This document shows positions 5,534-21,566 of a DNA stretch of 24,507 nucleotides, piece after piece. Position numbers and translations under genes: made by a program. Each line of letters begins with the position of its first letter. Position 1 is the first letter of the stretch. Source of the DNA: a virus (lineage: Duplodnaviria > Caudoviricetes); IMG/VR virus record IMGVR_UViG_3300006802_000538, positions 1 to 24,507 of that record. One strand, 5' to 3'. The notes under the pieces were generated by a model that saw nothing but the letters and a program-made list of their open reading frames with translations, had not been told where the DNA came from and did no database searches.

Positions 5534-6304
5534 TCAAAATGGGATTTCTTCCGCCGTGGTCGCAGCTTCGTCTTGATGCTTGACCTTAACGTCCCCCGAC
5601 TTCACCGAATTGGCGAACTCCTTCGCTAGACGGTAGACACCCATGTCCTCCACAGACCCAACACGCTCGATCTCCCAGCCGTACCACTTACCCTTATCGT
5701 TTGATTCTTGGGTCGTGGTCAGTCGATAAATCTGACTGAACATCGGCGGGGTATAAAGACCGCCCTGACTAGACTGGAGCTTCACGCTCATCTGCATGCT
5801 GTTCCACTTGCGGCTCTTCTTGAGCTGCGTGGACTTCATGGAGATAAGAGCGGGAGAAGGCACGCCATTCTCGTCCAGCACCATCACATAGTGATTCGCG
5901 GTGTTCTCGATATAGTTACCGTTATCAAGATAGTCGCGATTGTCCCCCGGCTCACGGTGTGTTCTGGACAGAATGTCGCTAGTCGCCGAATAGATCGCAA
6001 CCGGAGCACCACTGCCAGACCCACGAGGAGCCCATTCAATATACTGACGCACGTAGGCGCACGGAATCACCATCAGCCCCTTCTTGCCGTCGTACAGCTG
6101 ACCAGTCACGGTGTTGTACACCATGCCGGGCATTGCTCCATCGACTTCGCCAACTTCTGGACTGGAAGCCGTCAGAAGCCGTAAAAACGGCAATGCAAAG
6201 TCTTCTTGATTCATTCCGTCAAAACCCGACGCAGCAGCATCCTCCTCAAACGTGCTGACGACGACCATGCCGGTTTCGGCCTTCTGTGCTAGATCTTTGC
6301 TCAT
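5534..6304 (-). CDS. Putative single-stranded DNA-binding protein
   Basis: Position in the replication module, beta-rich aromatic core (YIEW, KWYGWEI) and an acidic C-terminal tail ending EEIPF, typical of SSBs. Confidence 0.7.
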   Translation of the reverse strand: MSKDLAQKAETGMVVVSTFEEDAAASGFDGMNQEDFALPFLRLLTASSPEVGEVDGAMPGMVYNTVTGQLYDGKKGLMVIPCAYVRQYIEWAPRGSGSGAPVAIYSATSDILSRTHREPGDNRDYLDNGNYIENTANHYVMVLDENGVPSPALISMKSTQLKKSRKWNSMQMSVKLQSSQGGLYTPPMFSQIYRLTTTQESNDKGKWYGWEIERVGSVEDMGVYRLAKEFANSVKSGDVKVKHQDEAATTAEEIPF

Positions 6305-6316
6305 GTTTCTTTCCTC

Positions 6317-6862
6317 TTATGACTTGATTACGGCCTTCTGGCCAATGTATGCGCCGAAGAGTTCTTGAGGGAACTCATTTCCGCGTTCCACCTGCTCACG
6401 AACCCATGCCTTAAGGGTCATGGGCTCTACCTTCTCCGACTGCTCAAGCGGGTATCCCGTCTCACGCAGCAACCGAACAAGACGAGCGCACAACTCGTCT
6501 TCGCCGCGCCCAAAGCGCACCGAGACGGTGTTCTTAATGATGTCATCGAAGCCGCGTTTCCGCAGCCATTCGTAAGCCTCCGCCCGCCTTCCTTCTGGGA
6601 TCGACGCACCGTAAAACGGTTTGATCTCAATAGAAGACCCGTCGTCCATCCTGAACGACTTCATGCCTAGTGTAGCAAGGGCTTCAGGGATGGACTCCTC
6701 AGTGAGCTTTCGGTACTGGTCCTTCCGCTCCTTGAGGCTCTGCTCCATGTCGTCCAGTTCTTTCTCAAGTTCCTTGGCCCGTCGGGCAAGGGCAGAAATG
6801 CCGGATAAGGCATCATCTGCAATACTGAATGCAGCAGCATCTTTTTCGAAGAGGTCAGTCAT
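6317..6862 (-). CDS. Conserved phage replication-module protein with N-terminal coiled coil
   Basis: 181 aa; heptad region ARRAKELEKELDDMEQSLKERK; motifs AYEWLR..G.DDIIK and VEPMTLKAWVRE recalled from phage hypotheticals; 8-bp overlap with the upstream gene. Confidence 0.8.
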   Translation of the reverse strand: MTDLFEKDAAAFSIADDALSGISALARRAKELEKELDDMEQSLKERKDQYRKLTEESIPEALATLGMKSFRMDDGSSIEIKPFYGASIPEGRRAEAYEWLRKRGFDDIIKNTVSVRFGRGEDELCARLVRLLRETGYPLEQSEKVEPMTLKAWVREQVERGNEFPQELFGAYIGQKAVIKS

Positions 6863-8721: not shown

Positions 8722-9446
8722 TACCCATCAGGAAAGAGTTCAAATACGAAGAACTACGTCGGGAAGACGGCCCCAACGGGCGCCGGTACGTGTACGGTGA
8801 ACAGCGCCTTCCCAGCGTGACCCATATCTTGTCGTCAACAGGCGACAAACAGGCCTTGAAAGACTGGGAAAACAGGGTTGGAACAGAAGAGGCAGAGCGC
8901 ATCAAAACAGAGGCATCCCTTGTGGGCACCCACATGCACTCTGTGATCGAACGAATGGTGGCTATGCGAGACCTGCCAAGGCCGACGAACTGGGCCATGA
9001 CAAAAGGCTATGAAATGGGCTATCGGCTCATCAATACCTTCTTCAAGAACATCGACGCCATCCATGGCTCCGAGGTGCCCCTGTACTACCCGGACAAGTA
9101 TGCTGGAACAGCGGACATGGTGGCCGTGTACCGTGGTCAGTTGGCCATTATCGACTTCAAACAGTCCAATAAGGTCAAAAGAAGGGGCTGGATCGACAGC
9201 TATTTTCAGCAACTCGCAGCGTATGCGCTTGCACACGACATGGTCCACGGTACTCGCATCGATTACGGCGTAATCCTAATGGCTTGCCGTGATGATGCGA
9301 ATACCATGCTGGAGTTTACGACCACGGGCCGCGATTTCGCCCAACATCAGGAGAAATGGCTGCGCCGGGTAAGCGCCTACTATGACGCTACGCCGCAGGT
9401 TGCTGCTCCTCCTCGGGAGGTACTGCCGCCTGTGCCGGGGGAGTGA
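8709..9446 (+). CDS. PD-(D/E)XK exonuclease (RecB/Cas4-like superfamily, no Fe-S cysteines)
   Basis: LPSVTHIL, GTHMH, SEVPLY, YAGTAD, IIDFKQS, QLAAYALAH. Confidence 0.9.
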   Translation: MVDLIPIRKEFKYEELRREDGPNGRRYVYGEQRLPSVTHILSSTGDKQALKDWENRVGTEEAERIKTEASLVGTHMHSVIERMVAMRDLPRPTNWAMTKGYEMGYRLINTFFKNIDAIHGSEVPLYYPDKYAGTADMVAVYRGQLAIIDFKQSNKVKRRGWIDSYFQQLAAYALAHDMVHGTRIDYGVILMACRDDANTMLEFTTTGRDFAQHQEKWLRRVSAYYDATPQVAAPPREVLPPVPGE

Positions 9447-11520
9447 GCCCCTGCAAAAGCTGGTCGTTCGGGAACAACTGCTCAAGCATCATGCGGCTCT
9501 GGCTGTTCGGCGCTCCTCCCGGAGCGGGAGCAGCAGGTGCCGCCGGCGCTGGAGCAGCAGGTGCCTGAGACCCGGGCATTCCTCTTGTGGAGGGGACAGC
9601 AGCATTTTTTTCAAATGCCCCTCGAAAAGCCTCCATCCGTCTTTTGGCGGATACCTCATTGAGCAGCTTATCTTTGGCCTCTTCTTCTGCAATGTTATAC
9701 GCTTCCTGCAACCACGCAGGAGCGGCAACCGTCTTTATGTCAGACATAGGGCTATAAAGATCGACGCCGGCTATCTCAGAAAGCAGGCGTTTTCTATCAA
9801 CGTCCGCGCCTCTGCCCACAAGGCCTAGTACTTTTTGCAGCGCCTGCTGCTTAAGGGTACTCAGGGCCAGTGTGTTATTTGCGCCCAGAGCATTGGCAAT
9901 GAGGATTGCTGCGGGCCTATCCAGCGCCTCTGAAATCTTTTCTTTGCCCATTTTTGTGGCGTCGTAGGCCGATGCCCAGTCTCGCATCGAGCGGAGATTC
10001 TTTATATCGTCTTGCGACAAAAGCTCCGTTGCAAGGCTGTAGTTTTTAAGCAAAAGATTATCGACGTTTTCCTTGAACTTGCTGAGATCTCTCTCTTCCA
10101 GAAGAGGCTGCAACACGGAATAACGTACCTCTGTTGAAAGAGCCTTTATCTGCGGGCTATCTTCTCCAAAAATTTCCTTTAAGCGAGACATAACACGCTG
10201 GGCACCCGCCGGGTACTTCTGCGCGCTTTCTCCAAACAAGGATTTACGAACCTCCTCCGGCGTGATCTCCTTGTTGCTAAGTATCTTTCGAACTGCTTTT
10301 TCTTCGTCAAATAGACGCCGATAATTCGCCCAGAACTTATCCGCGCCAATAAGCGCCGGAAAAACAGACCTATCCCCAAGCATTGTTTGGTTGTCGTAAG
10401 CATCACGGATAAGGCCATCAAGCCTTGCCCGGATGTGGCCAAATGCTGCGCCTTCTTCGCCCTTTACTCTTTTCCCAAGAGCCCTTCTGAGCGTAACGAT
10501 TCCGTTCGGCCCTCCCATGGGAACAGCGTCAGGCATTTCAGCCTGTTTTTTTATGTTACTAAGAACTGCCTTAAGCTGAGGCATTGCATCAAGCGCAAAA
10601 CGACCCTCGTTAATGTAGTTCGTGATGTCGTCCGAAAAATCCAAGAACGCTTTTTGAGGAATCGCTGCTTTCTTTGAAGAAGCGAGCGTATACAACTCGT
10701 CCCCTTTTTCTTTGTATCTTTGATCTAATCTCCGCCCAGCGTCTGCAATTTCTTTCAGTCGTTCAGCATAACGAACCTGATTTCCAGACAAATTTTTAGC
10801 TTTTAGTACAAATTGCTTGGCCTGCGTCGCGACTGGCTCAGTCAAGTCTATGCCGGACTCAGCAAAGCGCTTGGTGGCCTTCTTGACGAGATCTTTTCTG
10901 CCTAGTTTATCGGGAGAAACAGCCGAAAATATGTTTGCATTTGCGGCTGCCGCTGTTAAGTCTTCCAAGGCCTTTCTAGCCTCTCCCTTCGCCAGATTTT
11001 TTGCCCCAGATTTTACATTTCCAGCGGCTCTGGCTACTCCTCCGCCCGGGATCAAATTAGGAATAAACTCGATTCCAGAACGAACAGCCGCTCCAGCCGC
11101 CGGACCAAGAGCTTCTGCTGCCTGCTCGCCTGTCCAGTCGGCTGCCTTCGCTACAGGCTCCATAAGCTGCCCAGCAGCTCCTACAATCGCTTTTCCGCTC
11201 CTAGACCTAGGCTCGTAAGTCATCTCTTCCTGCGTTTTTTCGACAGACTCTGCGGCCTTGTTCAGATCCCCTGTCGCGAGGTTATAAAGCCCCTTCCACC
11301 CAGCAAGCGGTTCGGCAAGCATCGACGAAGCCATTGTCATTCCGGTCTCAGCAACGCCTTGTCCGAAATCCAATGCCTTCTCAGCAAACCCCTGCGGAGA
11401 AGTCTCTTTTTCCCGAAGCTCCTGAACTTTCCTGAATCCGCGTTCGGCTGCTTCGGGGCTGTCCGCAGTTATCTTGTACTTTTTGCCGTCAACATTGATG
11501 CTAAAAGACTGGGCGGCCAT
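9388..11520 (-). CDS. Putative internal virion/DNA ejection protein (710 aa)
   Basis: Last gene of the structural operon. Gly/Ala-rich N-terminal region with MTYEPRSRSGK motif recalled from DNA-transfer proteins, helical core and Pro/Ala-rich tail. Function is inferred from position and composition. Confidence 0.65.
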   Translation of the reverse strand: MAAQSFSINVDGKKYKITADSPEAAERGFRKVQELREKETSPQGFAEKALDFGQGVAETGMTMASSMLAEPLAGWKGLYNLATGDLNKAAESVEKTQEEMTYEPRSRSGKAIVGAAGQLMEPVAKAADWTGEQAAEALGPAAGAAVRSGIEFIPNLIPGGGVARAAGNVKSGAKNLAKGEARKALEDLTAAAANANIFSAVSPDKLGRKDLVKKATKRFAESGIDLTEPVATQAKQFVLKAKNLSGNQVRYAERLKEIADAGRRLDQRYKEKGDELYTLASSKKAAIPQKAFLDFSDDITNYINEGRFALDAMPQLKAVLSNIKKQAEMPDAVPMGGPNGIVTLRRALGKRVKGEEGAAFGHIRARLDGLIRDAYDNQTMLGDRSVFPALIGADKFWANYRRLFDEEKAVRKILSNKEITPEEVRKSLFGESAQKYPAGAQRVMSRLKEIFGEDSPQIKALSTEVRYSVLQPLLEERDLSKFKENVDNLLLKNYSLATELLSQDDIKNLRSMRDWASAYDATKMGKEKISEALDRPAAILIANALGANNTLALSTLKQQALQKVLGLVGRGADVDRKRLLSEIAGVDLYSPMSDIKTVAAPAWLQEAYNIAEEEAKDKLLNEVSAKRRMEAFRGAFEKNAAVPSTRGMPGSQAPAAPAPAAPAAPAPGGAPNSQSRMMLEQLFPNDQLLQGLTPPAQAAVPPEEEQQPAA

Positions 11521-11529
11521 CTTCTTCTC

Positions 11530-13623
11530 CTAATCGTTTTCGGCTTCAATACTGAAACCATCCCCAGAGTAGATCACGTTGGAAGACGGGGCTATCCCAG
11601 TTTCGGATGAAGGCCCTTGGCTCCCTACAGCAGGGGGAATACGCGGATTAAACACCGCAGGGTCTATCCCTTTTGATCTCAAATGGGCGTCAATCATTCC
11701 GTTAATCTTCGGGGGATCCCACGGTTCATCATAGGCATTCATTCGATTGATAAACGCCCCTTCGTAGGCTCCTCTTACCACGTTATTTACATTGGACAAG
11801 ATAACCCTTGGGTCACCACTTCCGGCACCCACCGACATAAGCGCCTGCTCCATGTCCTTGTTACTAAACTCCGCAGTAATTTTTCCTCCTCGCTGTGCTT
11901 TTGCAACGGCATAGGCAAGAGCGAGAAGACCTGTTCTCATGTTGTTTGACGTGATATTTGCCTCGTCAAAAACGGCATAGTTATTGGGATTAAAGATGTC
12001 GTTGATTTTTTCTGCCCCGCTATCCCCTCCAAATTTTCCACCAAGCGCCGATAGTTCTGTGCCAAACTCACCCAAAGCCCCTGCAATCCTGTTGACAGAG
12101 GTCGCTGAATCTGGGTTCTCGGTTATGCTTTGGGCCACCCTTAGTGCGGGCATTAAGATCTGGTCTGCGGCATCAATTTTTACTTCGGAATCTTCTTTTC
12201 TTTCCTCAGTGTCCGGAACCATGGACGGATTGATCTTCATGCCTGTGATGTTGGCCGGAGCCGGGGTCCCGTCTAGGAAAAACAACCTTCCGTCTTGTTC
12301 AACTCCTGACCCCACCACCCTGCGTTTATTGATGTCATAAAGAGTAATGGAATTTGGGCTACTCTTATTCTTTGACGCCGTTGGGAGTTCAACTACCTGT
12401 TCGCCTTCTCCCAAAACATACGGCTTTCCTGAGCGTAAATCCACCAAGGAAGTAGAGACCCCATCTTCGTTTATAACCCTTTCCACATTTGCTAGGATAT
12501 TCCCCCTACTGTCTTGGATAGAGAACATTCCCAGTGGTTTAGTTGCTGTCGATCTATCCTTTAGCGCACTTGCCGTAAGTTCGCCCTCTAGTTTCCTGTT
12601 TATGACTTCGTCAGAAATAGCCTGTTGCAGGGCCGCGAGCCGTGCTTCTTGGCCCATGGAATTTATCCGTCCTGCCGACTTTACGGCCAACGAAGGGACA
12701 TCACCAAAGGCCCCTGCAGCACGTGAGGCAAAGGAGCCGCTCAAGGGGTTTCCTCTGGCATCTTGGTTCGCGGCAAACGCAAAACTTCTTCGCGAGATAT
12801 CCGCCAGCAGGGCCGCCCGTTCTAGTTCTTTGTCTCGCTTTAGGTCTTGCCCCAAGGCGGAAGAAAACAGCCTCTCGTACGCCTTCGCATTACTTTCAAC
12901 GGCATTAGAATCAAGGGGGCGGATTAAAGATGAAAACGGGTTAGCTTTTTTTTTAGCTTCCCCGCCCGCCGCATAACGGGCATAACTTACCTCTCCCCCG
13001 TCAGCCATGTTTAGCGGTGGAAGCGCTCCTCCCGGGGGCATTCCTCCCGGGGGCATTCCTCCCGGGGGCATTCCTCCCGGGGGCATTGCGGGGGGCTGAA
13101 CCCCAGCCGTTACGCCCGCTCCCTGAAGCTGCTGCCCAAGGTCCGCTAGGCCTCCCCCGGCGGGAGAGGGCGGTGCACCAGCGCCCGATGGCGGGAGGGG
13201 GGGAGGAGTAGCCCCACCGGGCGCTGGGCCCGCGTTCTGTTGGCCGGGAACGCTTGCGATTCCCTGCCCGAGTTTGGATTGAAGAAGAGTAAGCACTTCT
13301 TCGGGAGTTTCCATGGCGGCTTCTTCGCCTACGAGATCTGCCAATTCCTTACGGCGAGCGTCAGGAGAGCGCATGTCTCCACGCAGGGTATTCATGAGGA
13401 TTTCTGGAGAGCGCGGCGTGCGCCCGATCATCTTGCCGGATTCCCCCTCCTCGTCGTCGTCTTCGCGTTCTAGTGCATCATCGTCTTCTTCCGGCATTCC
13501 ATTTTTTGACAGAGCTTCCATAAGGGACTCGTGCATAGAGTCCTTGAAGCCGTCCATGATGCCCACGTTCTCAATGTCCATGCCTTTACGGAACATTTTT
13601 CGATTAAGCACTTTTGATTTCAT
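11530..13623 (-). CDS. Putative internal virion/ejection protein (697 aa) with acidic and Pro/Gly-rich leader
   Basis: SD AGGT upstream. D/E-rich N-terminus, Pro/Gly linker, MADGG and YAAGG motifs, then a helical body. Confidence 0.65.
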   Translation of the reverse strand: MKSKVLNRKMFRKGMDIENVGIMDGFKDSMHESLMEALSKNGMPEEDDDALEREDDDEEGESGKMIGRTPRSPEILMNTLRGDMRSPDARRKELADLVGEEAAMETPEEVLTLLQSKLGQGIASVPGQQNAGPAPGGATPPPLPPSGAGAPPSPAGGGLADLGQQLQGAGVTAGVQPPAMPPGGMPPGGMPPGGMPPGGALPPLNMADGGEVSYARYAAGGEAKKKANPFSSLIRPLDSNAVESNAKAYERLFSSALGQDLKRDKELERAALLADISRRSFAFAANQDARGNPLSGSFASRAAGAFGDVPSLAVKSAGRINSMGQEARLAALQQAISDEVINRKLEGELTASALKDRSTATKPLGMFSIQDSRGNILANVERVINEDGVSTSLVDLRSGKPYVLGEGEQVVELPTASKNKSSPNSITLYDINKRRVVGSGVEQDGRLFFLDGTPAPANITGMKINPSMVPDTEERKEDSEVKIDAADQILMPALRVAQSITENPDSATSVNRIAGALGEFGTELSALGGKFGGDSGAEKINDIFNPNNYAVFDEANITSNNMRTGLLALAYAVAKAQRGGKITAEFSNKDMEQALMSVGAGSGDPRVILSNVNNVVRGAYEGAFINRMNAYDEPWDPPKINGMIDAHLRSKGIDPAVFNPRIPPAVGSQGPSSETGIAPSSNVIYSGDGFSIEAEND
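13028..13087. repeat. Perfect 15-bp tandem repeat x4 encoding (MPPGG)4
   Basis: CCTCCCGGGGGCATT at 13028, 13043, 13058 and 13073. Confidence 0.95.
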
Positions 13624-13632
13624 AGCTATACC

Positions 13633-16600
13633 TTAGATGATTCCGGCTCTGCTAGCAGCCCCTGCGCCTGTAAGAACGCCCGCTCCAATCCCCGCTATGG
13701 TCTGCAGGGGAGAAGTTGATGGGGCAGTTGTTGCCGACATAGACATTTGTGTAGAAGGAACGCGAGAGACGACGTCAGACAAGAAAGCAACGTCGTTACG
13801 CTCCTGCATAGCATTTTGAAGAGAGGTTGCTCTGGCCGCATCAAGTTGCGCTTGTGCATTTTGCTGCTGGCCCACGCCCATGTTGTAAAGCATGGAAACG
13901 TCGGACTGTTCAAGCTGCTGCTGCGCTTGCCCAAGCGCGGCTTGCTGGACGCCCATTGACGCCATTTGTTGGCCAAGACTTCCAAGCCCTTGTCCTTTGG
14001 CCAAGGTCGCTTCTGCTTGCTGCCCAGCAATACTTCCAAGCCCTTGTCCAAGCTGCCCGTACAACTGCCCCTTCTGAAGGTCGAACTGCCCCGAACCAAG
14101 GCTCAACTGCCCCTGCTGCGCTCCTATCTGCCCAAGGGCCTGTCCGACTGCAGCCATGTTCTGCACTCCCTGCTGACCAAGCTGAGTCTGCTGAAGCTCC
14201 TGTTGCCCAAGCACGTTTCCTGCATTTACAAGCTGCTGGCCCCTTTGAATACCAAGCTGTGCCTCTTGGGTTTCCATGTTGGCAAGATTCTGTGCCTGCT
14301 GGTTGTATATATTCGCACTTTGGGCGGCGAGATCTCCGTACAGCATGCCAGCCTGCGCTTCTTGCGAGGACATTCCGGCAAGCGCCTGAGCAGCCTGTTG
14401 GCCAAGTTGGGTCTGCTGAATTTGCTGCTGACCAAGAGTTTGGCCAGCGGCAACGAGCTGCTGTGCGCGCTGCAATTCTGCCTGAAGTTCTCTGGACTGA
14501 GTGTCCGTCAGCAAACCCGCCTGCTGTGCCTGCATCTGCCCCTGTACCTGAGCAATCTGTGCCGGCGTATACCCAGCCTGAACCATGTTTTGGTAGATAT
14601 TTGCCTCAAGGCCTGTGGCCGCCTGACCGAGCTGCGCCTGCTGAACAGCCTGTTGCCCCATAGCCTGCCCAGACTGCGTGATCTGCTGTGCCCTCTGCAA
14701 TTCTGTCTGGAGTTCGCGAGTTTGCGCGTCGGTAAGTAGTCCCGCACGCTGCGCTTGTATCTGGCTTTGGATTTGAGCGATCTGCGCGGGAGCATACCCA
14801 GCCTGAACAAGGTTCTGGTAGATAGCCGCCTCGGATGTTTCGGCCTGCTGCCCCAACTGCGCTTGCTGAAGCTCCTGTTGCCCCATCTGAGTTCCGATAT
14901 TTGCCAGCTGCTGCGCTTGGGCAAGTTCCGCCTGCGCCTGCGCGGACTGCAGTGCTCCTGCCTGCGTACCAAGCTGCCCCTGAAGCGCGGCTTCTTGTGC
15001 AATGGCGGCGGCACTACGCTGCCCAATTTCGCTCTGCGAAAGACCGAGATTACCCAGAAGGTTTCCTTGCCCCAGCTGACGCTGTTGCTGTTGCTCAAAT
15101 CCTGCCATTGCGGCCTGTTGCGCCTGCCCATAGTTTTGAGCGTAATCCTGCAGAATCTTTTGCTGCATCTGGTCTTGGATGTTTCGCTCAAATTCCGCTC
15201 GCTGAACGCCTTCGCGAGTCCCTCCAAAGGCCCCCGCCCGCACTGCCTGCGCGGCCATATCCTGCCTTGCGATGTTCGCCTGACGACGCATTTCCTGCAT
15301 CGCCTTTTGTGTCACCGCCTGTTGATAGGGGTTCATAAACTCCTGAGCAGCTTCTGGCGAATATGCTTCAGCGCCCTGCAAAAGTCCCTCAATCCCTAGA
15401 TTGATAGTTCTAGCTGCCTGTTTCTGGGCGGGAAGAGCTGCCTCAGCAACGTTCGAGGCGTTTTGAAGGCCTGCACGAACGGCCTTATTCGCCGTTCCCA
15501 TGTCAACATCAGCGCCCCTTGCCTGCTGTGCAGCCTGTCCGAGAAACGCCTGAGAACGCCCTAAATCCGCCTGAGAATACTGCCCTATATCTCGCGCAGA
15601 AGAGGTCATTCCACTGACCCCTTTTTGAATCGTCCCTATACCGCTATCTGCGGCATCAGCATAAGTTCCAAGTTGGTTAGCTACTGCTCTAGACGCGGCA
15701 AAATTAGGGTCTACGCTACTCGCAGCAGAAAGTCCTTGACGCAACGCAGCATCGCTTGCTGCTAGGTCTGCTCCAGAATACTGGCTAGCTTTCATCGCAG
15801 CTTGCCCCATTCCAGCAGTTCCCTTGGCTACTGTATCAAGCCCGTTGTCTGCAGCGTTGATAAACTGCCCTATTCCACTTGCCGCCGCGTTGGCGGCGGA
15901 AAAGTTCGGATCTATCGCCGTTGCTGAACCAATTCCGGCATTGATCGCGGTCTGACTAGGGGCTAGATTCGCCTGCGTGAATCCCCCAATCAATGCCTGA
16001 GCGGAATTAAGCCCAGCAATCCCTCCCGCAATCCCGGTCTCGCCTTTTGTTGCGGTGGCAACGGTATTGCCTAGGTTGTTGGTCGCGGTGACTGCATTGG
16101 TATAGTCAGGAGTCGCCGCTGTAAGAGCAGATGTCCCAGTGCCAATAGTGGTTTGGGCATTTGCAAGATTTGCCGCAAGGTAGTCGTCAGCCCGGCCTCC
16201 CGCGTCTTTTGCGTATCCCGCTCCTGCGTCCAAATACCCCAGCGCGTTTGTTAGACTCGGAGTAGAAGCGGCTCCTGCTGCCGTTAGCCCAGACGTATAG
16301 GCCCCCTGTGCACCGGAGTATAAGGTAGACAAATTAAGGTCGCTGAGGGCTTGTTTACCTAACTCAGCATAATCAACGCCGGAGCCTATTGTGGTGTCGG
16401 CGTCAGCTAGGTAGTCCTCCCACCCTGAAATTCCATCCCCTTTTAGCGTGTAGATGGCAGGAGATGTTTTTGTAGCCGGCGTGATGTCGTATCCGGTATA
16501 CCCGAGATCTTTTAGTAGATTTGTTTCTGCAAATTTCTGGAAAGGTGAAAGACCTGCGGCTTGGTAAGCAGGAAGTTCTAGTGTTTTTGCAATCTCGTCT

Positions 16601-16683
16601 TGAGCCGATTTAATTACAGCGGCGCGCTGCGCCTCTACTTCTGGCGCTTCTCGTACGATCTGGGTGGTAACGGTATCAACCAT
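13633..16683 (-). CDS. Putative DNA transfer/ejection channel protein, Gln/Ala/Gly-rich (1016 aa)
   Basis: N-terminal TTQIVREAPEVE, central FMNPYQ...AGAFGGTR motif recalled from podovirus ejection proteins, hydrophobic Gly-rich C-terminus IAGIGAGVLTGAGA. SD GAGG; 8-bp overlap with the upstream gene. Confidence 0.75.
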   Translation of the reverse strand: MVDTVTTQIVREAPEVEAQRAAVIKSAQDEIAKTLELPAYQAAGLSPFQKFAETNLLKDLGYTGYDITPATKTSPAIYTLKGDGISGWEDYLADADTTIGSGVDYAELGKQALSDLNLSTLYSGAQGAYTSGLTAAGAASTPSLTNALGYLDAGAGYAKDAGGRADDYLAANLANAQTTIGTGTSALTAATPDYTNAVTATNNLGNTVATATKGETGIAGGIAGLNSAQALIGGFTQANLAPSQTAINAGIGSATAIDPNFSAANAAASGIGQFINAADNGLDTVAKGTAGMGQAAMKASQYSGADLAASDAALRQGLSAASSVDPNFAASRAVANQLGTYADAADSGIGTIQKGVSGMTSSARDIGQYSQADLGRSQAFLGQAAQQARGADVDMGTANKAVRAGLQNASNVAEAALPAQKQAARTINLGIEGLLQGAEAYSPEAAQEFMNPYQQAVTQKAMQEMRRQANIARQDMAAQAVRAGAFGGTREGVQRAEFERNIQDQMQQKILQDYAQNYGQAQQAAMAGFEQQQQRQLGQGNLLGNLGLSQSEIGQRSAAAIAQEAALQGQLGTQAGALQSAQAQAELAQAQQLANIGTQMGQQELQQAQLGQQAETSEAAIYQNLVQAGYAPAQIAQIQSQIQAQRAGLLTDAQTRELQTELQRAQQITQSGQAMGQQAVQQAQLGQAATGLEANIYQNMVQAGYTPAQIAQVQGQMQAQQAGLLTDTQSRELQAELQRAQQLVAAGQTLGQQQIQQTQLGQQAAQALAGMSSQEAQAGMLYGDLAAQSANIYNQQAQNLANMETQEAQLGIQRGQQLVNAGNVLGQQELQQTQLGQQGVQNMAAVGQALGQIGAQQGQLSLGSGQFDLQKGQLYGQLGQGLGSIAGQQAEATLAKGQGLGSLGQQMASMGVQQAALGQAQQQLEQSDVSMLYNMGVGQQQNAQAQLDAARATSLQNAMQERNDVAFLSDVVSRVPSTQMSMSATTAPSTSPLQTIAGIGAGVLTGAGAASRAGII
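14242..14916 (-). repeat. Three 75-aa protein repeats (aa 590-814) plus partial fourth
   Basis: Units begin AQQLANIG, AQQITQSG, AQQLVAAG and GQQLVNAG at an exact 75-aa spacing. Confidence 0.9.
15580..16182 (-). repeat. Three 67-aa protein repeats (aa 168-368) plus partial fourth
   Basis: Units begin YLAANL, FTQANL, YSGADL and YSQADL at an exact 67-aa spacing, with shared (D)P(N/D)(F/Y) and G..G(L/M) positions. Confidence 0.85.
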
Positions 16684-18592
16684 TGGAGTTGCCCTCTAAT
16701 GCTTTCATTAAAGCATACATGCGTTTTGCACCGTTTCTGCGAGAGCCTTCGCCCGCTCCTCGTACTGCTTTGGCTGTAAACACGAACTCCCCGTCCGATA
16801 GCATCGCCGGGATGGAATCAGAAGTTCCAGTTCCGGGGCCGTTAATGGGTCCTGTCTTTCTTGGAAAATGATTTATCTCTCCACCAGAGGCGGCAGCTAC
16901 GACCGCTGGCGCTGCCGCCATTTGGTTGGGAGTCAAGCCTGACGTAACGAGGTCGTAAGCATTAGGATCTGTCGACAGGTTTGGGTAGGCGTAGGGGTCT
17001 TTTGTGATGTAAGCGGTATCCGCCCCACCAAGTTTGAAAGCCCATTTTTCTGGGTCTTCCTCAAGGAGCTGGTATCCCGTTTTTCCGGCATACCTTTGAT
17101 CAATCATTCCCTTGAATTCAGGGGGAACTTCTACCTCCGGAGTATCAAAAGCGCCAAGCGCATACGCTGCCCCAAGTCCTGCGGCTGTGATAGGACCGTA
17201 TGTCCGTAGAATACCCGGGGTCGCGGCCTTGAACGCTTCCATTGCCGCCGACTTACTTCCGGTTTCCAAAAGGGTGGTGTTGTAAGCCTCTTTTGCACTA
17301 GCCATCCCGGCTTCCTTAATTCCTCCGGGCATGATGTTTTGATTGACCCAGTCCCCCGCTTTTGAGAAAAACGACGGCTCTGCCGCCGCAGTAGCAGGAG
17401 AGGTGTACGCGTTTACATCTGCGGGAGTAAACACGTCTTTGGCCGCTGACAGCTCCCCAGTGGCGACATCCGAAGGTTTCATCGGAACCGTATCAAGCGT
17501 AACGGCCTCTTTTCCAGCCTCAATGCCCGCTGTTTTTGCGTTGCTAAGAGTTTCAATGCCCCCCGCTGCTCCTGTTGCACCCGCTGTTTTTGCAGTGGCG
17601 GCAGCAGCGGCTTCTTTGTATGAGGTCGGAGTTAGCCCAAAAACCTTGGCACCAATGCCCGCCGTTGCGCCGGTTATAAGCCCAGTTTTAAGCGCGTCTC
17701 CAAACTTTTGCCCGCTTGCCATACCAACAAGAGTGCTTGCGGCCATCGTGTTCACGGCAAGAGCAAGATTAGGCATTGCCGCAAGCCCCAAAGACCCTGC
17801 GAGACCTGCCCCAAACGGGCCGGCAGGCCCGAGTAAAAAAGTTGCCCCAACCGTCAGAACCGCCCTCCCAATAGGATTGGACGCTACCGACTTGACGACG
17901 TTGACAACGCCTTTAACAAGGCCAGTAACGGCTTTAGCTACCCCACTAAAGATGTTTCCAACGGCCTTGAAAATACTTTTCAAAAAGAATTCTGGGAGCC
18001 CTGTGATGGGGTTTATAGTTCCGCTGCCCCCGTTTCGACGTAGAAGACGTGCTTCTGAGGGGGTGATGTGGGCAAGCATCGTGTCCTGCTTGCGTCCTTG
18101 CGCTGCAACAGCGGCGGCAAGAGGCTTAAGGGTTGCCAGTCCGCCTTCCGCAAAATTCATGGAGGGGATCTCTGGCCGCTGCGACATTTTTTCGGAAAGT
18201 TCGTCCAAAACGATGTTCATCGCAGCAAAAAAAGCAGGATCAAACCTTTCCGGAAGAATGTCGGGCGGAACCCCCTCGTCAATAAACCCCTGTCGGTTTT
18301 CTTCGTAGTTCTCCGGCTCGCTTACGAGAGCATCTATCATTTTGCCCAAGGCATCGATGACTTCTTCTGGGAGGGCTACTCTTTCCAGTACTGCACGGAG
18401 CTGGGCGACAAGACGAGGGTCTGCCTTTTCGATGGTTTCTATCAGATCTTTTCCGAAGCGTTGTGGGTCTTCTGCAGCATACTCTCGCACGGCAGACTCG
18501 AATTGCTGCATCTCTTCTGGAGAAACTTCGGGGACGCTCGGGGCCATGGAAGAATCCATGTTCTCCCCTAAAGACATGATACCTTCAGCCAT
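16676..18592 (-). CDS. Putative internal virion/pilot protein (638 aa) with two tape-measure-like AxGG modules and a membrane-active segment
   Basis: FAEGG...DTMLAHITPSE...GGSGTINPITGLPEF; amphipathic helix and Gly-rich hydrophobic stretch; C-terminal ASGG...GPGTGTSDSIPAMLSDGEFVFT. Confidence 0.75.
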   Translation of the reverse strand: MAEGIMSLGENMDSSMAPSVPEVSPEEMQQFESAVREYAAEDPQRFGKDLIETIEKADPRLVAQLRAVLERVALPEEVIDALGKMIDALVSEPENYEENRQGFIDEGVPPDILPERFDPAFFAAMNIVLDELSEKMSQRPEIPSMNFAEGGLATLKPLAAAVAAQGRKQDTMLAHITPSEARLLRRNGGSGTINPITGLPEFFLKSIFKAVGNIFSGVAKAVTGLVKGVVNVVKSVASNPIGRAVLTVGATFLLGPAGPFGAGLAGSLGLAAMPNLALAVNTMAASTLVGMASGQKFGDALKTGLITGATAGIGAKVFGLTPTSYKEAAAAATAKTAGATGAAGGIETLSNAKTAGIEAGKEAVTLDTVPMKPSDVATGELSAAKDVFTPADVNAYTSPATAAAEPSFFSKAGDWVNQNIMPGGIKEAGMASAKEAYNTTLLETGSKSAAMEAFKAATPGILRTYGPITAAGLGAAYALGAFDTPEVEVPPEFKGMIDQRYAGKTGYQLLEEDPEKWAFKLGGADTAYITKDPYAYPNLSTDPNAYDLVTSGLTPNQMAAAPAVVAAASGGEINHFPRKTGPINGPGTGTSDSIPAMLSDGEFVFTAKAVRGAGEGSRRNGAKRMYALMKALEGNSNG

Positions 18593-19017: not shown

Positions 19018-19710
19018 TTAGCTCAAAGATGAGATATAGCCCACCGTCAGGATGACAGAAGGCGTTGCTGGGCGGGTCGGAGAGGTCGCCGAGGCTAATT
19101 GCTGGATGGATACCGCCGTATTCGTCGTACTCCAGTAAATTTCGAAGTAATCCCCCGGATTAAGGTCCAGATAGAAGTTAAGAGCGGCGATTATTCCTCC
19201 GTCCACGCCCCCGTGCGAGGAGGTAACGCTGTAGCGACTGTTACTATCTGCAATGTTAGTGCCGTTTTTTGAGAACCAGATATCAACGTCGTGTATTTGA
19301 CTGTCCGTATTGATCAACTGAAGGCTAAACTGGGCGTTGTAAACCCCCGCGTAGTCCACGTTCACCCGCGAGGAGTTGGTGACATACACGCCCTCTGACA
19401 GGTCTGTCACGTTGTACGTGATTGCATAGCCAACGGTCGTAGATGCCGCCGTCTGGTCTTGGTTACTCCTGAAAGCCCCGTGAGGAAGAAGGAGTTGCTG
19501 GGCACCTTGCGGCCCAGAAATGCCTGATGGCCCTGCCGTTCCTCCAAACCAACGCCCCGCCCCGTCCGTGTTCTCGGTCGTAGTCGGGGTGTAGCTCGTG
19601 TTGAGCTGGAAAATGACCTGTTCCAGTGACCGCACAAGCTGGTTGAACTGCTCCGGGCTATACTCCCGGGGAATAGCATTCGGCAGGCGGACGTTGAGAA
19701 TCTTGCTCAT
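19018..19710 (-). CDS. Putative tail needle/spike protein with short collagen-like linker and C1q/TNF-like C-terminal domain
   Basis: N-terminal helix EQFNQLVRSLEQVIFQLN, five Gly-X-Y triplets, then PHGAF...AGVYNAQFSLQ...KNG...LNPGDYFEIYW. ATGA-type coupling to the nozzle gene. Confidence 0.65.
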   Translation of the reverse strand: MSKILNVRLPNAIPREYSPEQFNQLVRSLEQVIFQLNTSYTPTTTENTDGAGRWFGGTAGPSGISGPQGAQQLLLPHGAFRSNQDQTAASTTVGYAITYNVTDLSEGVYVTNSSRVNVDYAGVYNAQFSLQLINTDSQIHDVDIWFSKNGTNIADSNSRYSVTSSHGGVDGGIIAALNFYLDLNPGDYFEIYWSTTNTAVSIQQLASATSPTRPATPSVILTVGYISSLS

Positions 19711-21566
19711 CTAAGGCCGTCCGGCTGCAAGTCTACCCGCAGGGTTCCATATCGCCACTTGGTGTCAATCTCGTCACTCTCGATCCGAAGCGAGATTTGC
19801 CTACCACGCGCCCTTGTGTCGACCTTAGTAGTCGTAGGCGTGATCGTGTACGGGTCCAAAGAACTTGGTGTGGCAGTGCCTTGCGGATAAGCGCGAAGCA
19901 ACAAATGGACCGTAAGGTCTCCTTCCTGCCCCTTGAAGTCCGGCAAGAACCTGCTCATGAAGAGCATGTTGTCGCCATCTCCAATGTCAAAGTAGCCCGA
20001 ACGAATATAGGCTGTTATGGCTTCATCAACCGCATTCTTACCATACTCCTGCGCGTATGCGGGAGATCTTCCTGCCGACAGGCCGTAGATCGTCGAAATG
20101 GTGCTTTCAGTGCTGCTTGGCAAGTAAGAGAATGCCGAGGGGTATTTGAATACAGTAGCATCTTCCCACCATGTTCTAGCCATGGTTCCAATGCTCCAGA
20201 CCTGCTCAAGGTAGTTAAACGTCACGCAACGGTCGATGTAGTCCGAATTCTCAGAGCAATACCACCATGTGACTTCATTGAAGTCAGAGTTGATTCCAAC
20301 AAAGAACCGTGAGCCTTGGGTCGAGTTCATGTCATCAAAGACATAATCCTGTACGGTGCATGGAAGTTTCTTAACCGTACCGTCGAACACGTAGAACGCC
20401 TCATGGCCCATCCAAAGAGCAAGCCCGTTCACGTCTGCCGCTGCATGTGCCCCAATACAACCACAGTTAGCGCCAAGTTGCTGGAACCCAAAAGTGTAAG
20501 GGGGTCCTATGTACTGCATGCCGTGCAGTGACGTATCCGTGAAGATAAGAATTTGACCTCTTGAGCGGATGGCCGTCACGATCTGATTGCCGTCCGTAAG
20601 GCGTTGGCCCCCCGCCGTGTTGGTCGCAGTCTCGGCAAAGTTCCCAATGTCCTCCTGCGAGGAAAACCTCACGAACATCGGGTCCTGCGTCGAAGGGGTT
20701 CCAATCGTACTTTCAGTGCCAAAGCACACCAGATGTCTGTCAGGAGTAGAGACGAGCGCATAGGTGCTCTTCGTCGGCGCTCCCGATATCTGGGAAGCGC
20801 GCGTGCTAGGGCCTGCGCTAGTATCCCAGTAGTAAGTACCGCCGTTATACAGCTGGCAGACCATGTCTTCGCCGTAATTATCGAACTGCCAAATTCGAGC
20901 AAACAGGCCTAGGCCGGCAGCGCGAGGAGTTCCCCATGTCCCACCGCCCCATGCTCCAACACCCCATCCAAAGTCAAAGTAGTTGATGTCTAGACCAATC
21001 GAAATCTGGTACGCCCCTACAACAGAGGCTCCTCCGTTACCGCTGTCAGAAGCATTGGCGTTAACGGGAGCCGTTATAGTATAGGTGTTCGCGGTCAGAA
21101 CTGAGGTAACTTCATATTCGGCATTCAAAATAGAAGCCGTAATATTTCCTCCGAGAGAACTGGCCCCGCTAAACGTAACAAAATCCCCAGCTGACGCGCC
21201 GTGAGCGGTGTCCGTAACTGTAATGATCGAAGACCCGTTAGTCGCCGCAAAAGTAACATCTCCAGCGGCAGTCGTTGCCCGCAGCGGCGTGATGTCGTCC
21301 CAAAGACCGCCAGAATAGACGTACAGTTTCTTTGTTGTCCCCACCATCATGTAAGGAACACCCGCCAGTGAAGTCCAAGATCTTGAGTGACTTACAATTC
21401 CTACAAGATACGTCTCAAGCTGCTCGAACCAAGTCCAGCCGCCTACTTTTTCAGGAAGGCCATAGCGAAAGCGCACGTAGTCGCAGTCGGTCCAGCCGCC
21501 CTCAGCTCCGTACTCTGTATTTTGTTTGTCTATGCCCGGCTTTAATGCCAAACGAAGAAGAGCCAT
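19707..21566 (-). CDS. Putative tail nozzle / packaged-DNA stabilisation protein (P22 gp10/T7 gp12-like role)
   Basis: 619 aa, beta-propeller-like composition; N-terminal LKPGIDK...W.DCDYVRFRYGLPEKVGGW and C-terminal RARGRQ...WRYG...QPDGLR. SD AGGAG. Confidence 0.75.
   Translation of the reverse strand: MALLRLALKPGIDKQNTEYGAEGGWTDCDYVRFRYGLPEKVGGWTWFEQLETYLVGIVSHSRSWTSLAGVPYMMVGTTKKLYVYSGGLWDDITPLRATTAAGDVTFAATNGSSIITVTDTAHGASAGDFVTFSGASSLGGNITASILNAEYEVTSVLTANTYTITAPVNANASDSGNGGASVVGAYQISIGLDINYFDFGWGVGAWGGGTWGTPRAAGLGLFARIWQFDNYGEDMVCQLYNGGTYYWDTSAGPSTRASQISGAPTKSTYALVSTPDRHLVCFGTESTIGTPSTQDPMFVRFSSQEDIGNFAETATNTAGGQRLTDGNQIVTAIRSRGQILIFTDTSLHGMQYIGPPYTFGFQQLGANCGCIGAHAAADVNGLALWMGHEAFYVFDGTVKKLPCTVQDYVFDDMNSTQGSRFFVGINSDFNEVTWWYCSENSDYIDRCVTFNYLEQVWSIGTMARTWWEDATVFKYPSAFSYLPSSTESTISTIYGLSAGRSPAYAQEYGKNAVDEAITAYIRSGYFDIGDGDNMLFMSRFLPDFKGQEGDLTVHLLLRAYPQGTATPSSLDPYTITPTTTKVDTRARGRQISLRIESDEIDTKWRYGTLRVDLQPDGLR

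Follow-up and report, generated by a model that had tools for sequence, protein, structure and literature searches.

The ejection proteins of short-tailed phages, a fast-diverging group of proteins, are hard to study: they adopt different shapes in virion and host, and virion maps mostly fail to show them. In long-tailed phages, tape measure proteins are single extended chains that set the length of the tail. According to preprint text that is accessible in part, gp56 of the Bruynoghevirus Pa223 lies within the virion, where it was detected by LC-MS yet is invisible by cryo-EM; it has been proposed to be an outer-membrane channel and was modelled as a nonamer, and gp59 of the same phage is named the tail hub. 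The accessible portion of another preprint describes gp41, the outer-membrane protein of the phiKMV-like phage Ar-KM, as a helical-hairpin channel after ejection. It also reports that the summed length of three ejection proteins is nearly constant (2378 +/- 162 aa), which is read there as a fixed periplasm width. In SMC proteins, arm length is periodically constrained, including a 3.5-aa period (PMC5344682, in the part available).

Here, a 1016-aa protein (P0001) encoded within a window of 24,507 nucleotides, the whole stretch of DNA that was analysed, is compared with these systems. We lean towards the reading that P0001 is a giant podophage protein of the PHROG 4287/Pa223 gp56-like kind, forming one predicted antiparallel helical hairpin that turns at GAFGG, with its repeats as matched rungs of the two arms.

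The gene, its family and its neighbourhood

The ORF of P0001 occupies 13633-16683 on the minus strand and is the longest member seen of its family, the hairpin ejection proteins as read here. At its start, the ORF shares 8 nt with the end of the upstream gene, and the N-terminal motif shared by the family stands at the beginning of P0001 and of its homologues. The coordinates given by an earlier, sequence-only reading of the window were correct, with window positions 16182 and 14242 falling on aa 168 and aa 814, respectively. The protein shows a strong compositional bias (A 19%, Q 16%, G 11%).

The conserved N-terminal anchor (aa 1-50, QIVREAPEVEA...LPAYQAAGLS; 16534..16683, minus) matches aa 4-49 of the homologue in phage DSL-LC04 and is present in 215 of the 241 family proteins. 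It is followed by the N arm (aa 51-444; 15352..16533, minus), predicted to be helical with breaks, whose length is variable in the family (394 aa in P0001 vs 41-371 aa in relatives) and which contains, at ~aa 53-77, an unmatched insert of 25 aa. The conserved tip of the predicted hairpin (aa 445-556, FMNPYQQ...AGAFGGTREGVQRAE...; 15016..15351, minus) is predicted as helix, turn and helix. Across aa 447-555 it is 65% identical to DSL-LC04, and P452, R467, Q468, G484-G487, R490 and E497 are invariant in 84 sequences. Within the tip lies GAFGG (aa 484-488; 15220..15234, minus), the putative fold-back point according to covariation anti-diagonals and mirrored gap positions. The C arm (aa 557-905; 13969..15015, minus) is a predicted helix rich in Gln, Ala and Gly, with a periodicity of 25 residues (seven turns). 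The conserved C-terminal anchor (aa 906-1016; 13636..13968, minus) shares 46% identity with DSL-LC04 aa 188-294, and its last part is a hydrophobic tail rich in Gly and Ala (aa 993-1016; 13636-13707, minus). This tail contains the most hydrophobic 19-aa window of P0001 (aa 993-1011), whose mean Kyte-Doolittle value of 1.16 falls short of the 1.6 customarily required of a transmembrane helix. The 294-aa DSL-LC04 homologue aligns only to aa 5-50, 447-555 and 910-1016; P0001 is a family core of ~294 aa (N end, tip and C end) plus two inserted, nearly equal arms. The N-terminal anchor and the C end would together form the base of the hairpin.

No PHROG is matched by P0001 itself at E <= 0.001, and no Pfam family either; its connection to phrog_4287 goes via short homologues. 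PHROG 4287, 'DNA ejection protein', is matched by 23 of 30 short members (best E 1.5e-9), and P0001 is clearly homologous to the short members (E down to 1e-100). The profile is also matched by DSL-LC04 (E 6.9e-9), HTVC027P gp83 (5.6e-6) and Pa223 gp56 (1.5e-10), and the short members, DSL-LC04 and Pa223 gp56 cover the same stretch of it. A tblastn search against named phages found DSL-LC04 and HTVC023P only. Short forms of the protein are carried by HTVC023P and HTVC027P, both of them cultured pelagiphages. Comparison of the family with Pa223 gp56 by hhalign was not significant (E 0.13), a search with the family HMM did not recover Pa223 gp56, and Pfam gave no domain above the curated cut-offs in the 30 short members.

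The surrounding module is of the type found in short-tailed relatives of HTVC023P/HTVC027P and, at a greater distance, of Bruynoghevirus. A 619-aa tail-hub homologue (19707..21566, minus) is homologous to Pa223 gp59 and anchors the synteny with Bruynoghevirus. The upstream neighbour p638 (16676..18592, minus), which is kept beside the hairpin gene, carries a short tape-measure-like motif at aa 557-615. The downstream neighbour p697 (11530..13623, minus) has no PHROG/Pfam family match and is, by its position, a candidate periplasmic-tunnel ejection protein. The last gene of the module, p710 (9388..11520, minus), takes the position where relatives have a protein of ~800-1150 aa, annotated in DSL-LC04 as 'DNA transfer protein'. 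The conserved order is hub, p230, p110, p638, hairpin, p697 and large protein; among 80 loci, matches were found to p638 and the hairpin in 80 each, to the hub in 74, to p110 in 66, to p697 in 59 and to p230 in 49. This order (hub, needle-sized gene, small gene, then hairpin and two large proteins) parallels Pa223 gp59-gp53, the hub alone being homologous by sequence. Host assignments from the genome collection placed the contigs in MAGs of unrelated phyla and were not trusted. We infer that P0001 may serve as a DNA conduit, because of PHROG 4287, the Pa223-like gene order and the published helical-hairpin outer-membrane channels.

Matched arms and the predicted hairpin

Both arms of P0001 contain repeats, recognised as self-matches and as blocks absent from relatives. 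The N-arm units N1-N3 (3 x 67 aa) span aa 189-389 in the register used here (15517..16119, minus) and aa 168-368 in that of the sequence-only reading; the C-arm units C1-C4, of 75 aa each, span aa 584-883 (14035..14934, minus) and begin near aa 584, 659, 734 and 809. Self-comparison used ungapped 30-aa matches against 30 whole-protein shuffles, with a shuffle maximum of 52. The C half scored 127, 94, 89 and 70 at offsets 75, 150, 225 and 307, and the N half 82 at offset 67 (aa 256 vs 323) and a borderline 51 at offset 134. Matches between the N arm and the C arm did not exceed the shuffle maximum, thus the two repeat families look unrelated. This had been claimed in the earlier reading, together with three units and a partial fourth in each arm. 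The units are indeed there, C1-C3 being its 3 x 75 and C4 its partial C-arm fourth, but the possible fourth N unit (aa 122) reaches an identity of only 18-19%. That reading had also called the inner units the most alike in each arm, in agreement with the identities of C1/C2 (68%, the remaining C pairs 32-41%) and N2/N3 (43%, N1 vs N2 or N3 27-28%), and the motifs it listed (DPNF, AAD.G, IYQN.VQAGY.PAQIAQ and AGLLTD) all occur in the repeats. The N units are ~10% shorter than the C units. At the DNA level, C1/C2 are 65% and N2/N3 46% identical, and Tandem Repeats Finder on the ORF returned three short arrays (periods 6 and 10) and none at the 67/75-aa repeat periods. The repeats of P0001 are old.

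Relatives differ from P0001 by paired blocks. The 850-aa relatives P0005 and P0006 are without one 67-aa block (~aa 305-371) and one 75-aa block (~aa 608-682), and the 567-aa relative P0007 is without 201 aa (~aa 177-377) and 225 aa (~aa 605-829); relatives differ in paired units (exactly 0, 2 or 3). The proposal that matched duplications lengthened both arms is well supported by these paired differences of 67+75 or 201+225 aa.

Across the family, the arms change in step. In 213 complete homologues, the measurable ones among 241 proteins, N- and C-arm lengths correlate with a Pearson coefficient of 0.975 and a Theil-Sen slope of 1.04, over 61 distinct length pairs ranging from 41/37 to 394/405 aa. 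Phylogenetic contrasts, computed on a tree of the family's conserved columns, gave r 0.847, which 0 of 10000 permutations equalled or exceeded. Both arms are altered by matching amounts in 17 of 22 sister pairs, for example 67/75, 134/150, 23/25 and 7/7. The correlation was replicated in complete IMG/VR genes (68 of 69, r 0.978), in further long proteins (44 of 47, r 0.896), with motif landmarks (228 of 288 proteins, r 0.976; P0001 is 473/483 by these landmarks) and in divergent 50%-identity cluster representatives (32 of 143, r 0.845). About 430 sequences were covered in all, from a family that falls into about 1,650 clusters at 90% identity and 2,066 at 50%. Exact matching is not obligatory, since 14 of the 61 length pairs fall >20 aa off the line, such as 134/80 and 198/344. 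The roughly 1:1 co-variation predicted from P0001 alone was thus found and replicated several times, and the check for independent variation of the arms, named beforehand as contrary evidence, did not refute it.

Additionally, the positions of the changes are informative. Sister-pair gaps in the two arms are mirror-placed about GAFGG (r 0.94 over 17 gap pairs, a nested double pair among them). Residue covariation in the tip forms an anti-diagonal, with the best pairs at i+j = 0 to 7 from the first G of GAFGG; near i+j = 3 lie 8 of the 10 top unique-position pairs vs 27.5% expected. Together with the co-varying lengths, the mirrored indels and this anti-diagonal give good support to the earlier proposal that the two arms pair antiparallel about AGAFGG. 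Furthermore, C-arm lengths are quantised family-wide at 3.57 aa, which is one alpha-helical turn, with a coherence of 0.78 to 0.85 at this period vs null maxima <=0.48; N-arm lengths, tested likewise across the family, showed no quantisation. In P0001 the C arm bears stripes of Gly (R 0.62) and of Gln (R 0.45) with a period of 3.568 aa, and the N arm a hydrophobic stripe with a period of 3.53 aa (R 0.37), all of them beyond 200/200 shuffles. From such sequence patterns, the family protein is predicted to be an antiparallel alpha-helical hairpin.

The AlphaFold2 monomer models, one for the 376-aa form and one for P0001, are all-alpha, with a helix-turn-helix at residues 483-490, at low global confidence (pLDDT 47 with pTM 0.22, and pLDDT 66 with pTM 0.28). 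In the P0001 model, the tip comprises a helix at 452-482, a turn at 483-490 and a helix at 491-547, and the C arm contains long helices with pLDDT ~95 at aa 620-680 and 700-750. Both arms are split into segments and not modelled as single continuous helices, and the two monomers gave no usable tertiary structure. Helix breaks that seemed mirrored between the modelled arms were judged by eye and were unconvincing. The profile search of PDB sequences yielded no relative (best E 1.4), and Foldseek of the large model against the PDB gave none at E <= 0.001; its hits at E > 4 are assorted long helical proteins and meaningless. For neither query did the ESM Atlas contain a structure; its weak lead to P22_gp7 (feature score 0.88, 18% of cluster members with the family) lies below what the tool requires of anything beyond a lead and was dropped. 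Comparative inference suggests an alpha-helical hairpin protomer as in the gp14-type proteins (T7 gp14, Ar-KM gp41, DEV gp73 and N4 gp52), with which AlphaFold2 agrees at low confidence; PDB profile search and Foldseek found no solved protein of that type related to it in sequence or fold.

Proposed function and competing explanations

In the hairpin reading, a glycine groove on the C arm would receive the hydrophobic stripe of the N arm. Several hairpins may ride in the virion and be expelled upon infection, as in other short-tailed phages, after which they would line up laterally to build a helical tube. The hairpin base, consisting of the N end and the C-terminal tail rich in Gly, would be located at the tail or the outer membrane, with the conserved tip as the docking site for the next ejection protein. 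Arm length would then set tube length, each arm measuring ~6 nm in the shortest members, ~12 nm in the common form of 376 aa, and at most ~60 nm in P0001 if fully helical. A further step, which is tentative and on the doubtful side, is that the hairpin is an evolvable ruler. Gain and loss of paired rungs, from ~6 to ~60 nm, would fit the tube to the thickness of the host envelope or surface layer, the longest versions, P0001 among them, being by themselves an envelope-spanning extensible tail that is deployed during infection only. As the reason for a tube as long as P0001 would build, a thick host envelope or surface layer is the leading guess.

The arms might instead pair antiparallel between chains, in head-to-tail dimers or higher assemblies in which the N arm lies against the C arm of the next chain and the tips lie side by side. 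Co-varying arms, mirrored indels and anti-diagonal covariation are predicted equally well by this arrangement; low monomer pTM would be expected if the fold requires partner chains, and ejection proteins are reported, in sources available in part, to alter conformation and stoichiometry between virion and host. It is nevertheless unlikely, as the invariant GAFGG with its flanking helices resembles a tight turn, both AlphaFold2 models show a helix-turn-helix there, and the Ar-KM outer-membrane ejection protein, whose structure is solved, is an intramolecular hairpin in the accessible part of its description. The dimensions of the virion also speak against it. The capsids of ~60 kb genomes have a diameter close to ~60 nm, and an extended chain of P0001 would be ~120 nm long, twice that value.

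The same dimensions bear on a second explanation, in which the hairpin is a rod inside the virion (such as an axial core, a plug of the portal and tail channel, or a spacer organising the packaged DNA) with its length matched to a virion dimension and not to the host envelope. An arm of ~60 nm is near that capsid diameter, and versions of 376, 446, 668 and 1016 aa all occur on ~60 kb contigs and would therefore share a similar-sized capsid; Pa223 gp56, moreover, is inside the virion yet unseen by cryo-EM in the available preprint text. Matching to a capsid is hard to reconcile, however, with a tenfold range of arm length at similar genome size. A structural neighbour of such a rod should also co-vary in length, and none does, the hub, p110, p638, p697 and the last large gene all having been compared with the hairpin protein. 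The rod is considered improbable.

Even less credit is given to non-contacting arms, that is, independent spacers of equal span with their ends and centre anchored on other proteins. Equal arm lengths alone would follow from such spacers, and the N arm, unquantised and with units 10% shorter, behaves as if it were a mere tether. On the other hand, mirrored indels and anti-diagonal covariation near the turn would be unexpected, and the complementary stripes, bulky and hydrophobic on the N arm and glycine on the C arm, suggest packing. Slippage in Q/A/G-rich low-complexity sequence, by which equal arms would be functionally meaningless, would fit the biased composition and the unmatched arms tolerated in some lineages but can hardly explain old repeats lacking a DNA-level tandem signal, matched changes in many independent sister pairs and lengths quantised by helical turn.

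If the predicted hairpin holds, the family represents a natural series in which hairpin length varies more than tenfold with the tip and base conserved, making the setting of conduit length in short-tailed phages testable. In addition, mirrored indels and helical quantisation offer sequence-only tests for antiparallel hairpins in uncharacterised phage proteins, which could serve where structure prediction fails.

Comparison with known systems

P0001 resembles Pa223 gp56 in matching, through its family, the same part of the phrog_4287 profile, in its position in the gene order, behind a tail hub and a needle-sized gene, and in sequence, both proteins showing AG.[FY]G..R.GV and a hydrophobic C end, rich in Gly, that closes with GL(L)F. 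Unlike P0001 with its 1016 aa, however, Pa223 gp56 has 313 aa, and direct comparison of the family with gp56 is not significant; no arm-length variation has been described for gp56, and the phage group of P0001 has an additional conserved gene, p638, that separates the small gene from the hairpin gene.

Tail tape measure proteins are likewise largely helical, change length by gain and loss of repeats and could set a physical distance. P0001 differs from them in belonging to a short-tailed phage module and in having two mutually matched arms. A tape-measure identity was rejected, as P0001 has no PHROG/Pfam tape-measure match and only the neighbour p638 has a short motif of that kind.

With SMC/Rad50 proteins, the family shares a long antiparallel coiled coil made of one chain, N and C ends that lie together and a conserved fold-back domain, as predicted here. 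In contrast to them, it is part of a phage virion module, is without ABC ATPase head, hinge, zinc hook or Pfam match, and has arm lengths that are continuous over a tenfold range and not confined to a few modes. No Pfam domain was found in P0001 and none above cut-off in the 30 short members; membership was rejected and the likeness is one of architecture only.

The Ar-KM protein gp41 is, in the accessible preprint text, a continuous alpha-helical hairpin after ejection, six copies of which line an open nozzle, and the same architecture may apply to P0001. The arms of gp41 are ~27-41 residues long vs ~400 in P0001, and no sequence relationship was found between Ar-KM gp41 or T7 gp14-type proteins and P0001. 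Unlike the nearly constant sum reported in that preprint, the hairpin protein of the P0001 family varies 3.5-fold and its neighbours do not compensate, which argues against a constant summed length of ejection proteins dictated by a fixed periplasm width. That outer-membrane ejection proteins form helical-hairpin channels is known; what is new here is the matched tuning of both arms over a tenfold range.

Core, arms and repeat units of the 1016-aa protein

The 1016-aa protein (P0001; window 13633-16683, minus strand) is rich in alanine, glutamine and glycine (19%, 16% and 11%, respectively), and direct searches with it gave no Pfam or PHROG family match. Its sole named-phage match is a 294-aa hypothetical protein of DSL-LC04, a metagenome-assembled phage, which aligns in three pieces alone (aa 5-50, 447-555 and 910-1016). 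Judged by sequence, P0001 is a small core carrying two inserted arms. The family is almost wholly uncultured, with 273 clusters of at least 558 aa and 1344 shorter clusters at 90% identity (2066 clusters at 50%), and a search with the centre alone gave 308 long clusters. Members of about 376 aa are the most frequent, pelagiphages carry short forms, and P0001 is the longest member seen. Additionally, two bacterial MAG contigs (L091, 1.6 Mb; L092, 0.57 Mb) encode only the tip, the conserved centre around GAFGG (equivalent to aa 449-525, 40-50% identity), and may hold distant prophage relatives of the family.

The sequence-only reading had placed repeat families on both sides of this centre, and ungapped 30-aa self-comparison confirms them. 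The C half has a period of 75 aa, scoring 127, 94, 89 and 70 at offsets 75, 150, 225 and 307, and the N half scores 82 at offset 67, the maximum across 30 shuffles being 52; the first N unit (N1) is weak alone, offset 134 scoring 51. The inner units are the most alike in each arm, as had been proposed: C1/C2 are 68% identical against 32-41% for the remaining C pairs, and N2/N3 43% against 27-28% for N1 with either. DNA-level identity is 65% for C1/C2 and 46% for N2/N3, and the ORF has no DNA tandem-repeat signal at the 67-aa or 75-aa unit periods; the duplications behind the repeats are, on such comparisons, old. Moreover, the units are real units of change. When P0001 is aligned with its closest relatives (63-68% identical), P0005 and P0006 (850 aa) each lack one 67-aa N-arm block together with a 75-aa C-arm block, and P0007 (567 aa) is shorter by 201 N-arm residues (3 x 67) and 225 C-arm residues (3 x 75). 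Paired units thus number 0, 2 and 3 within the P0001 lineage. A Thr-, Tyr- and Pro-rich insert of 25 aa near aa 53-77 of P0001 (window 16453-16527, minus strand) occurs in none of the four closest relatives and has no C-arm counterpart.

Matched arm lengths and probable antiparallel pairing

Arm length was defined as the stretch between adjacent conserved pieces (N end, centre, C end) located in each homologue. It was measurable in 213 of 241 proteins, the 28 dropped being 26 without an N-end match, one with a match not at the start and one without a centre or C-end match. N-arm/C-arm lengths span 41/37 to 394/405 aa, and their Pearson r is 0.975 (213 proteins, 61 distinct length pairs); the distinct pairs alone give r 0.937 and a Theil-Sen slope of 1.04, with 39 of the 61 deviating from the line by no more than 15 aa and 14 by over 20 aa. 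Independent contrasts, on a tree restricted to alignment columns with an occupancy of 90% or more, give r 0.847, a value reached by none of 10000 permutations. Among 22 sister pairs with a difference of 5 aa or more in either arm, 17 show matched changes (such as 7/7, 16/18, 23/25, 31/32, 46/50, 54/57, 67/75, 73/82, 100/107 and 134/150), four changed in one arm only and one has an extra unmatched N insert. Because of these contrasts and matched sister-pair changes, the correlation is not simply a product of common ancestry.

The correlation was replicated with genes from IMG/VR contigs (68 of 69 complete genes, r 0.978), with further long proteins over a narrower range (44 of 47, r 0.896) and with distances among three short motifs (228 of 288 proteins, r 0.976), by which P0001 has 473 and 483 residues on the two sides of the turn. 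Divergent cluster representatives, of which only 32 of 143 keep all three strict motifs, give r 0.845, with 29 of the 32 within 20 aa of equality. The expectation of the sequence-only reading that the two arms co-vary across homologues is thus upheld. Some stable lineages do have unmatched arms, two clusters and two contigs with 134/80 being an example. One such unmatched insert, of 56 aa and apparently made of a helix, a short Pro-containing linker and a second helix, is found in two otherwise different members, at aa 130-185 of P0201 and aa 285-340 of P0046, and lies in the N arm near the turn without a C-arm partner. It might fold into a side hairpin paired with itself, which would be consistent with the pairing rule and would account for several "unmatched" outliers.

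The direction of pairing can be read from gap positions. In pairwise alignments of 18 sister pairs, N-arm and C-arm gaps lie nearly equidistant from G[AS]FGG (for example -65/+70, -150/+143, -111/+117, -98/+97 and -57/+58), and one pair has a nested double gap at -68/+71 and -139/+152. The mirror distances correlate with r 0.94 over 17 gap pairs, a set excluding one pair that duplicates another's values and one with an unmatched insert. Furthermore, mutual information with average-product correction over 297 distinct 120-aa tip segments (effective number about 61) shows that 14 of the 25 strongest covarying pairs in the tip span the turn, the best anti-diagonals being i+j = 3, 4, 2, 6, 0 and 7 from the first G of GAFGG. 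When no position is counted twice, 8 of the 10 highest-ranked cross-turn pairs lie in a band holding 27.5% of such pairs (binomial p about 8e-4, the band being chosen post hoc). Both results agree with the antiparallel fold-back at AGAFGG proposed earlier. Parallel arms within one chain are geometrically impossible, since the 110-aa centre cannot bridge 400-residue arms. A hairpin with matched expansion is strongly supported by these sequence comparisons.

C-arm lengths fall on a 3.57-residue lattice (coherence 0.78 for 45 distinct values versus a 99% null of 0.43), also by the motif-based measure (0.85 versus a null maximum of 0.48) and in the divergent set (0.66); family-wide, the N arm has no such lattice. 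A C-arm lattice would be expected if helix angular phase must be kept at both ends. In P0001, the C arm (349 aa) has glycine and glutamine stripes (R 0.62 and 0.45) at period 3.568 = 25/7 = 75/21, and in the N arm (394 aa) hydrophobic residues form a stripe (R 0.37) at 3.53 = 67/19. None of 200 shuffles matched any of these stripes; their long-range coherence is partly a harmonic of the repeats. With units of 67 versus 75 residues the N arm is about 10% short, which might be offset by one short extended linker per unit, a candidate being the Pro-containing DPNF, where AF2 breaks the helix. Structure prediction adds little. From an 84-sequence alignment, AF2 models P0001 as 24 helices without any strand, turning at 483-490 (mean pLDDT 65.8, pTM 0.28; some C-arm helices about 95), and the 376-aa form (pLDDT 47, pTM 0.22) has helices 137-167 and 176-231 around a GAFGGTRE turn. 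Both models split the arms into several helices, and Foldseek found no significant match in the PDB.

Late module and what arm length might set

The record, a complete IMG/VR entry of 24.5 kb with an estimated completeness of 41%, comes from a short-tailed phage. Its replication end encodes a family A DNA polymerase, UvrD-like helicase, AEP primase, SNF2 helicase and exonuclease. Adjoining the primase and conserved across the phage group, a gene pair (window 5534-6862, minus strand) matches Pfam families named after cyanophage Pam3 gp34/gp33 (E 8e-67, 1e-33); the DSL-LC04 counterparts carry the annotations ATP-binding protein and DNA-end-protecting protein. The late module occupies the other end on the minus strand, in the order tail fibre (934 aa), 619, 230, 110, 638, 1016, 697 and 710 aa, the 619-aa protein being homologous to the Pa223 tail hub gp59. 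The upstream neighbour p638 (window 16676-18592, minus strand) carries at aa 557-615 a 40-60-aa motif common to many tape-measure PHROGs (E about 5e-8) and at aa 199-342 a weak endolysin-PHROG match (E 0.002); within the module it may be what cuts the cell wall. No Pa223 gene occupies the corresponding position. The last gene, p710 (window 9388-11520, minus strand), is unrelated to its 1050-1070-aa counterpart in the closest relatives save for the last ~60 residues (53% identity), which looks like a module swap that retained the C-terminal end alone; in 43 other loci the gene here encodes about 800-1150 aa.

Contigs of about 60 kb carry hairpin versions of 376 to 1016 aa, so capsid size is probably not what the hairpin measures. 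Among the hub, the 110-aa protein, p638, the downstream neighbour p697 and the last large protein, none tracks hairpin length, and against the sum of the other three the Spearman correlation is -0.10 (43 loci), unlike the summed length in T7-like phages, which is nearly constant according to the available part of 10.64898/2026.05.18.726046. A host-envelope ruler is put forward as a hypothesis. Fully helical P0001 arms would reach about 60 nm, exceeding the need of a Gram-negative envelope; the rod would be shorter if the units are kinked, as the AF2 models hint. MAG bin labels were rejected as host evidence, being unreliable. The needle-position gene (window 19018-19710, minus strand) encodes 230 aa here and 73-488 aa in relatives, and tends to be longer where the hairpin is shorter (Spearman -0.51, p 5e-4, n 42, without phylogenetic correction). 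Needle and hairpin might both contribute to crossing the envelope.

Probable ejection role and known systems

PHROG 4287, "DNA ejection protein", is matched by 23 of 30 short members, the DSL-LC04 protein and HTVC027P gp83, and Pa223 gp56 matches the same portion of this profile (E 1.5e-10). The link between the family and gp56 is transitive, because their direct comparison is not significant. Over 80 loci the hairpin gene is accompanied by its upstream neighbour in 80, a hub homologue in 74 and the downstream gene in 59, always in a conserved order, which parallels Pa223 gp59 (hub), gp58 (needle), gp57, gp56, gp54 and gp53. Family and context make an ejection-channel role a reasonable inference. 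A full-text literature search over the main texts of openly available articles listed none whose title or opening abstract lines mention co-varying arms or ejection-protein length tuning, and the words "hairpin" and "coiled" occur nowhere in the accessible text of PMC8954989, a review of ejection proteins.

The architecture inferred here fits a hairpin-shaped kind of ejection protein that is already known. According to the portions of these reports available, Pa223 gp56 is present in virions by LC-MS, invisible in the cryo-EM map and proposed as an outer-membrane channel (10.1101/2025.06.11.659172); the counterpart in Ar-KM, a phiKMV-like phage, is a continuous helical hairpin post-ejection, six of which form a channel lining the open nozzle (10.64898/2026.05.18.726046); and the small N4 ejection protein is a predicted elongated helical protomer (PMC13434306). 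Among antiparallel coiled coils under length constraint, SMC is the closest analogy (PMC5344682).
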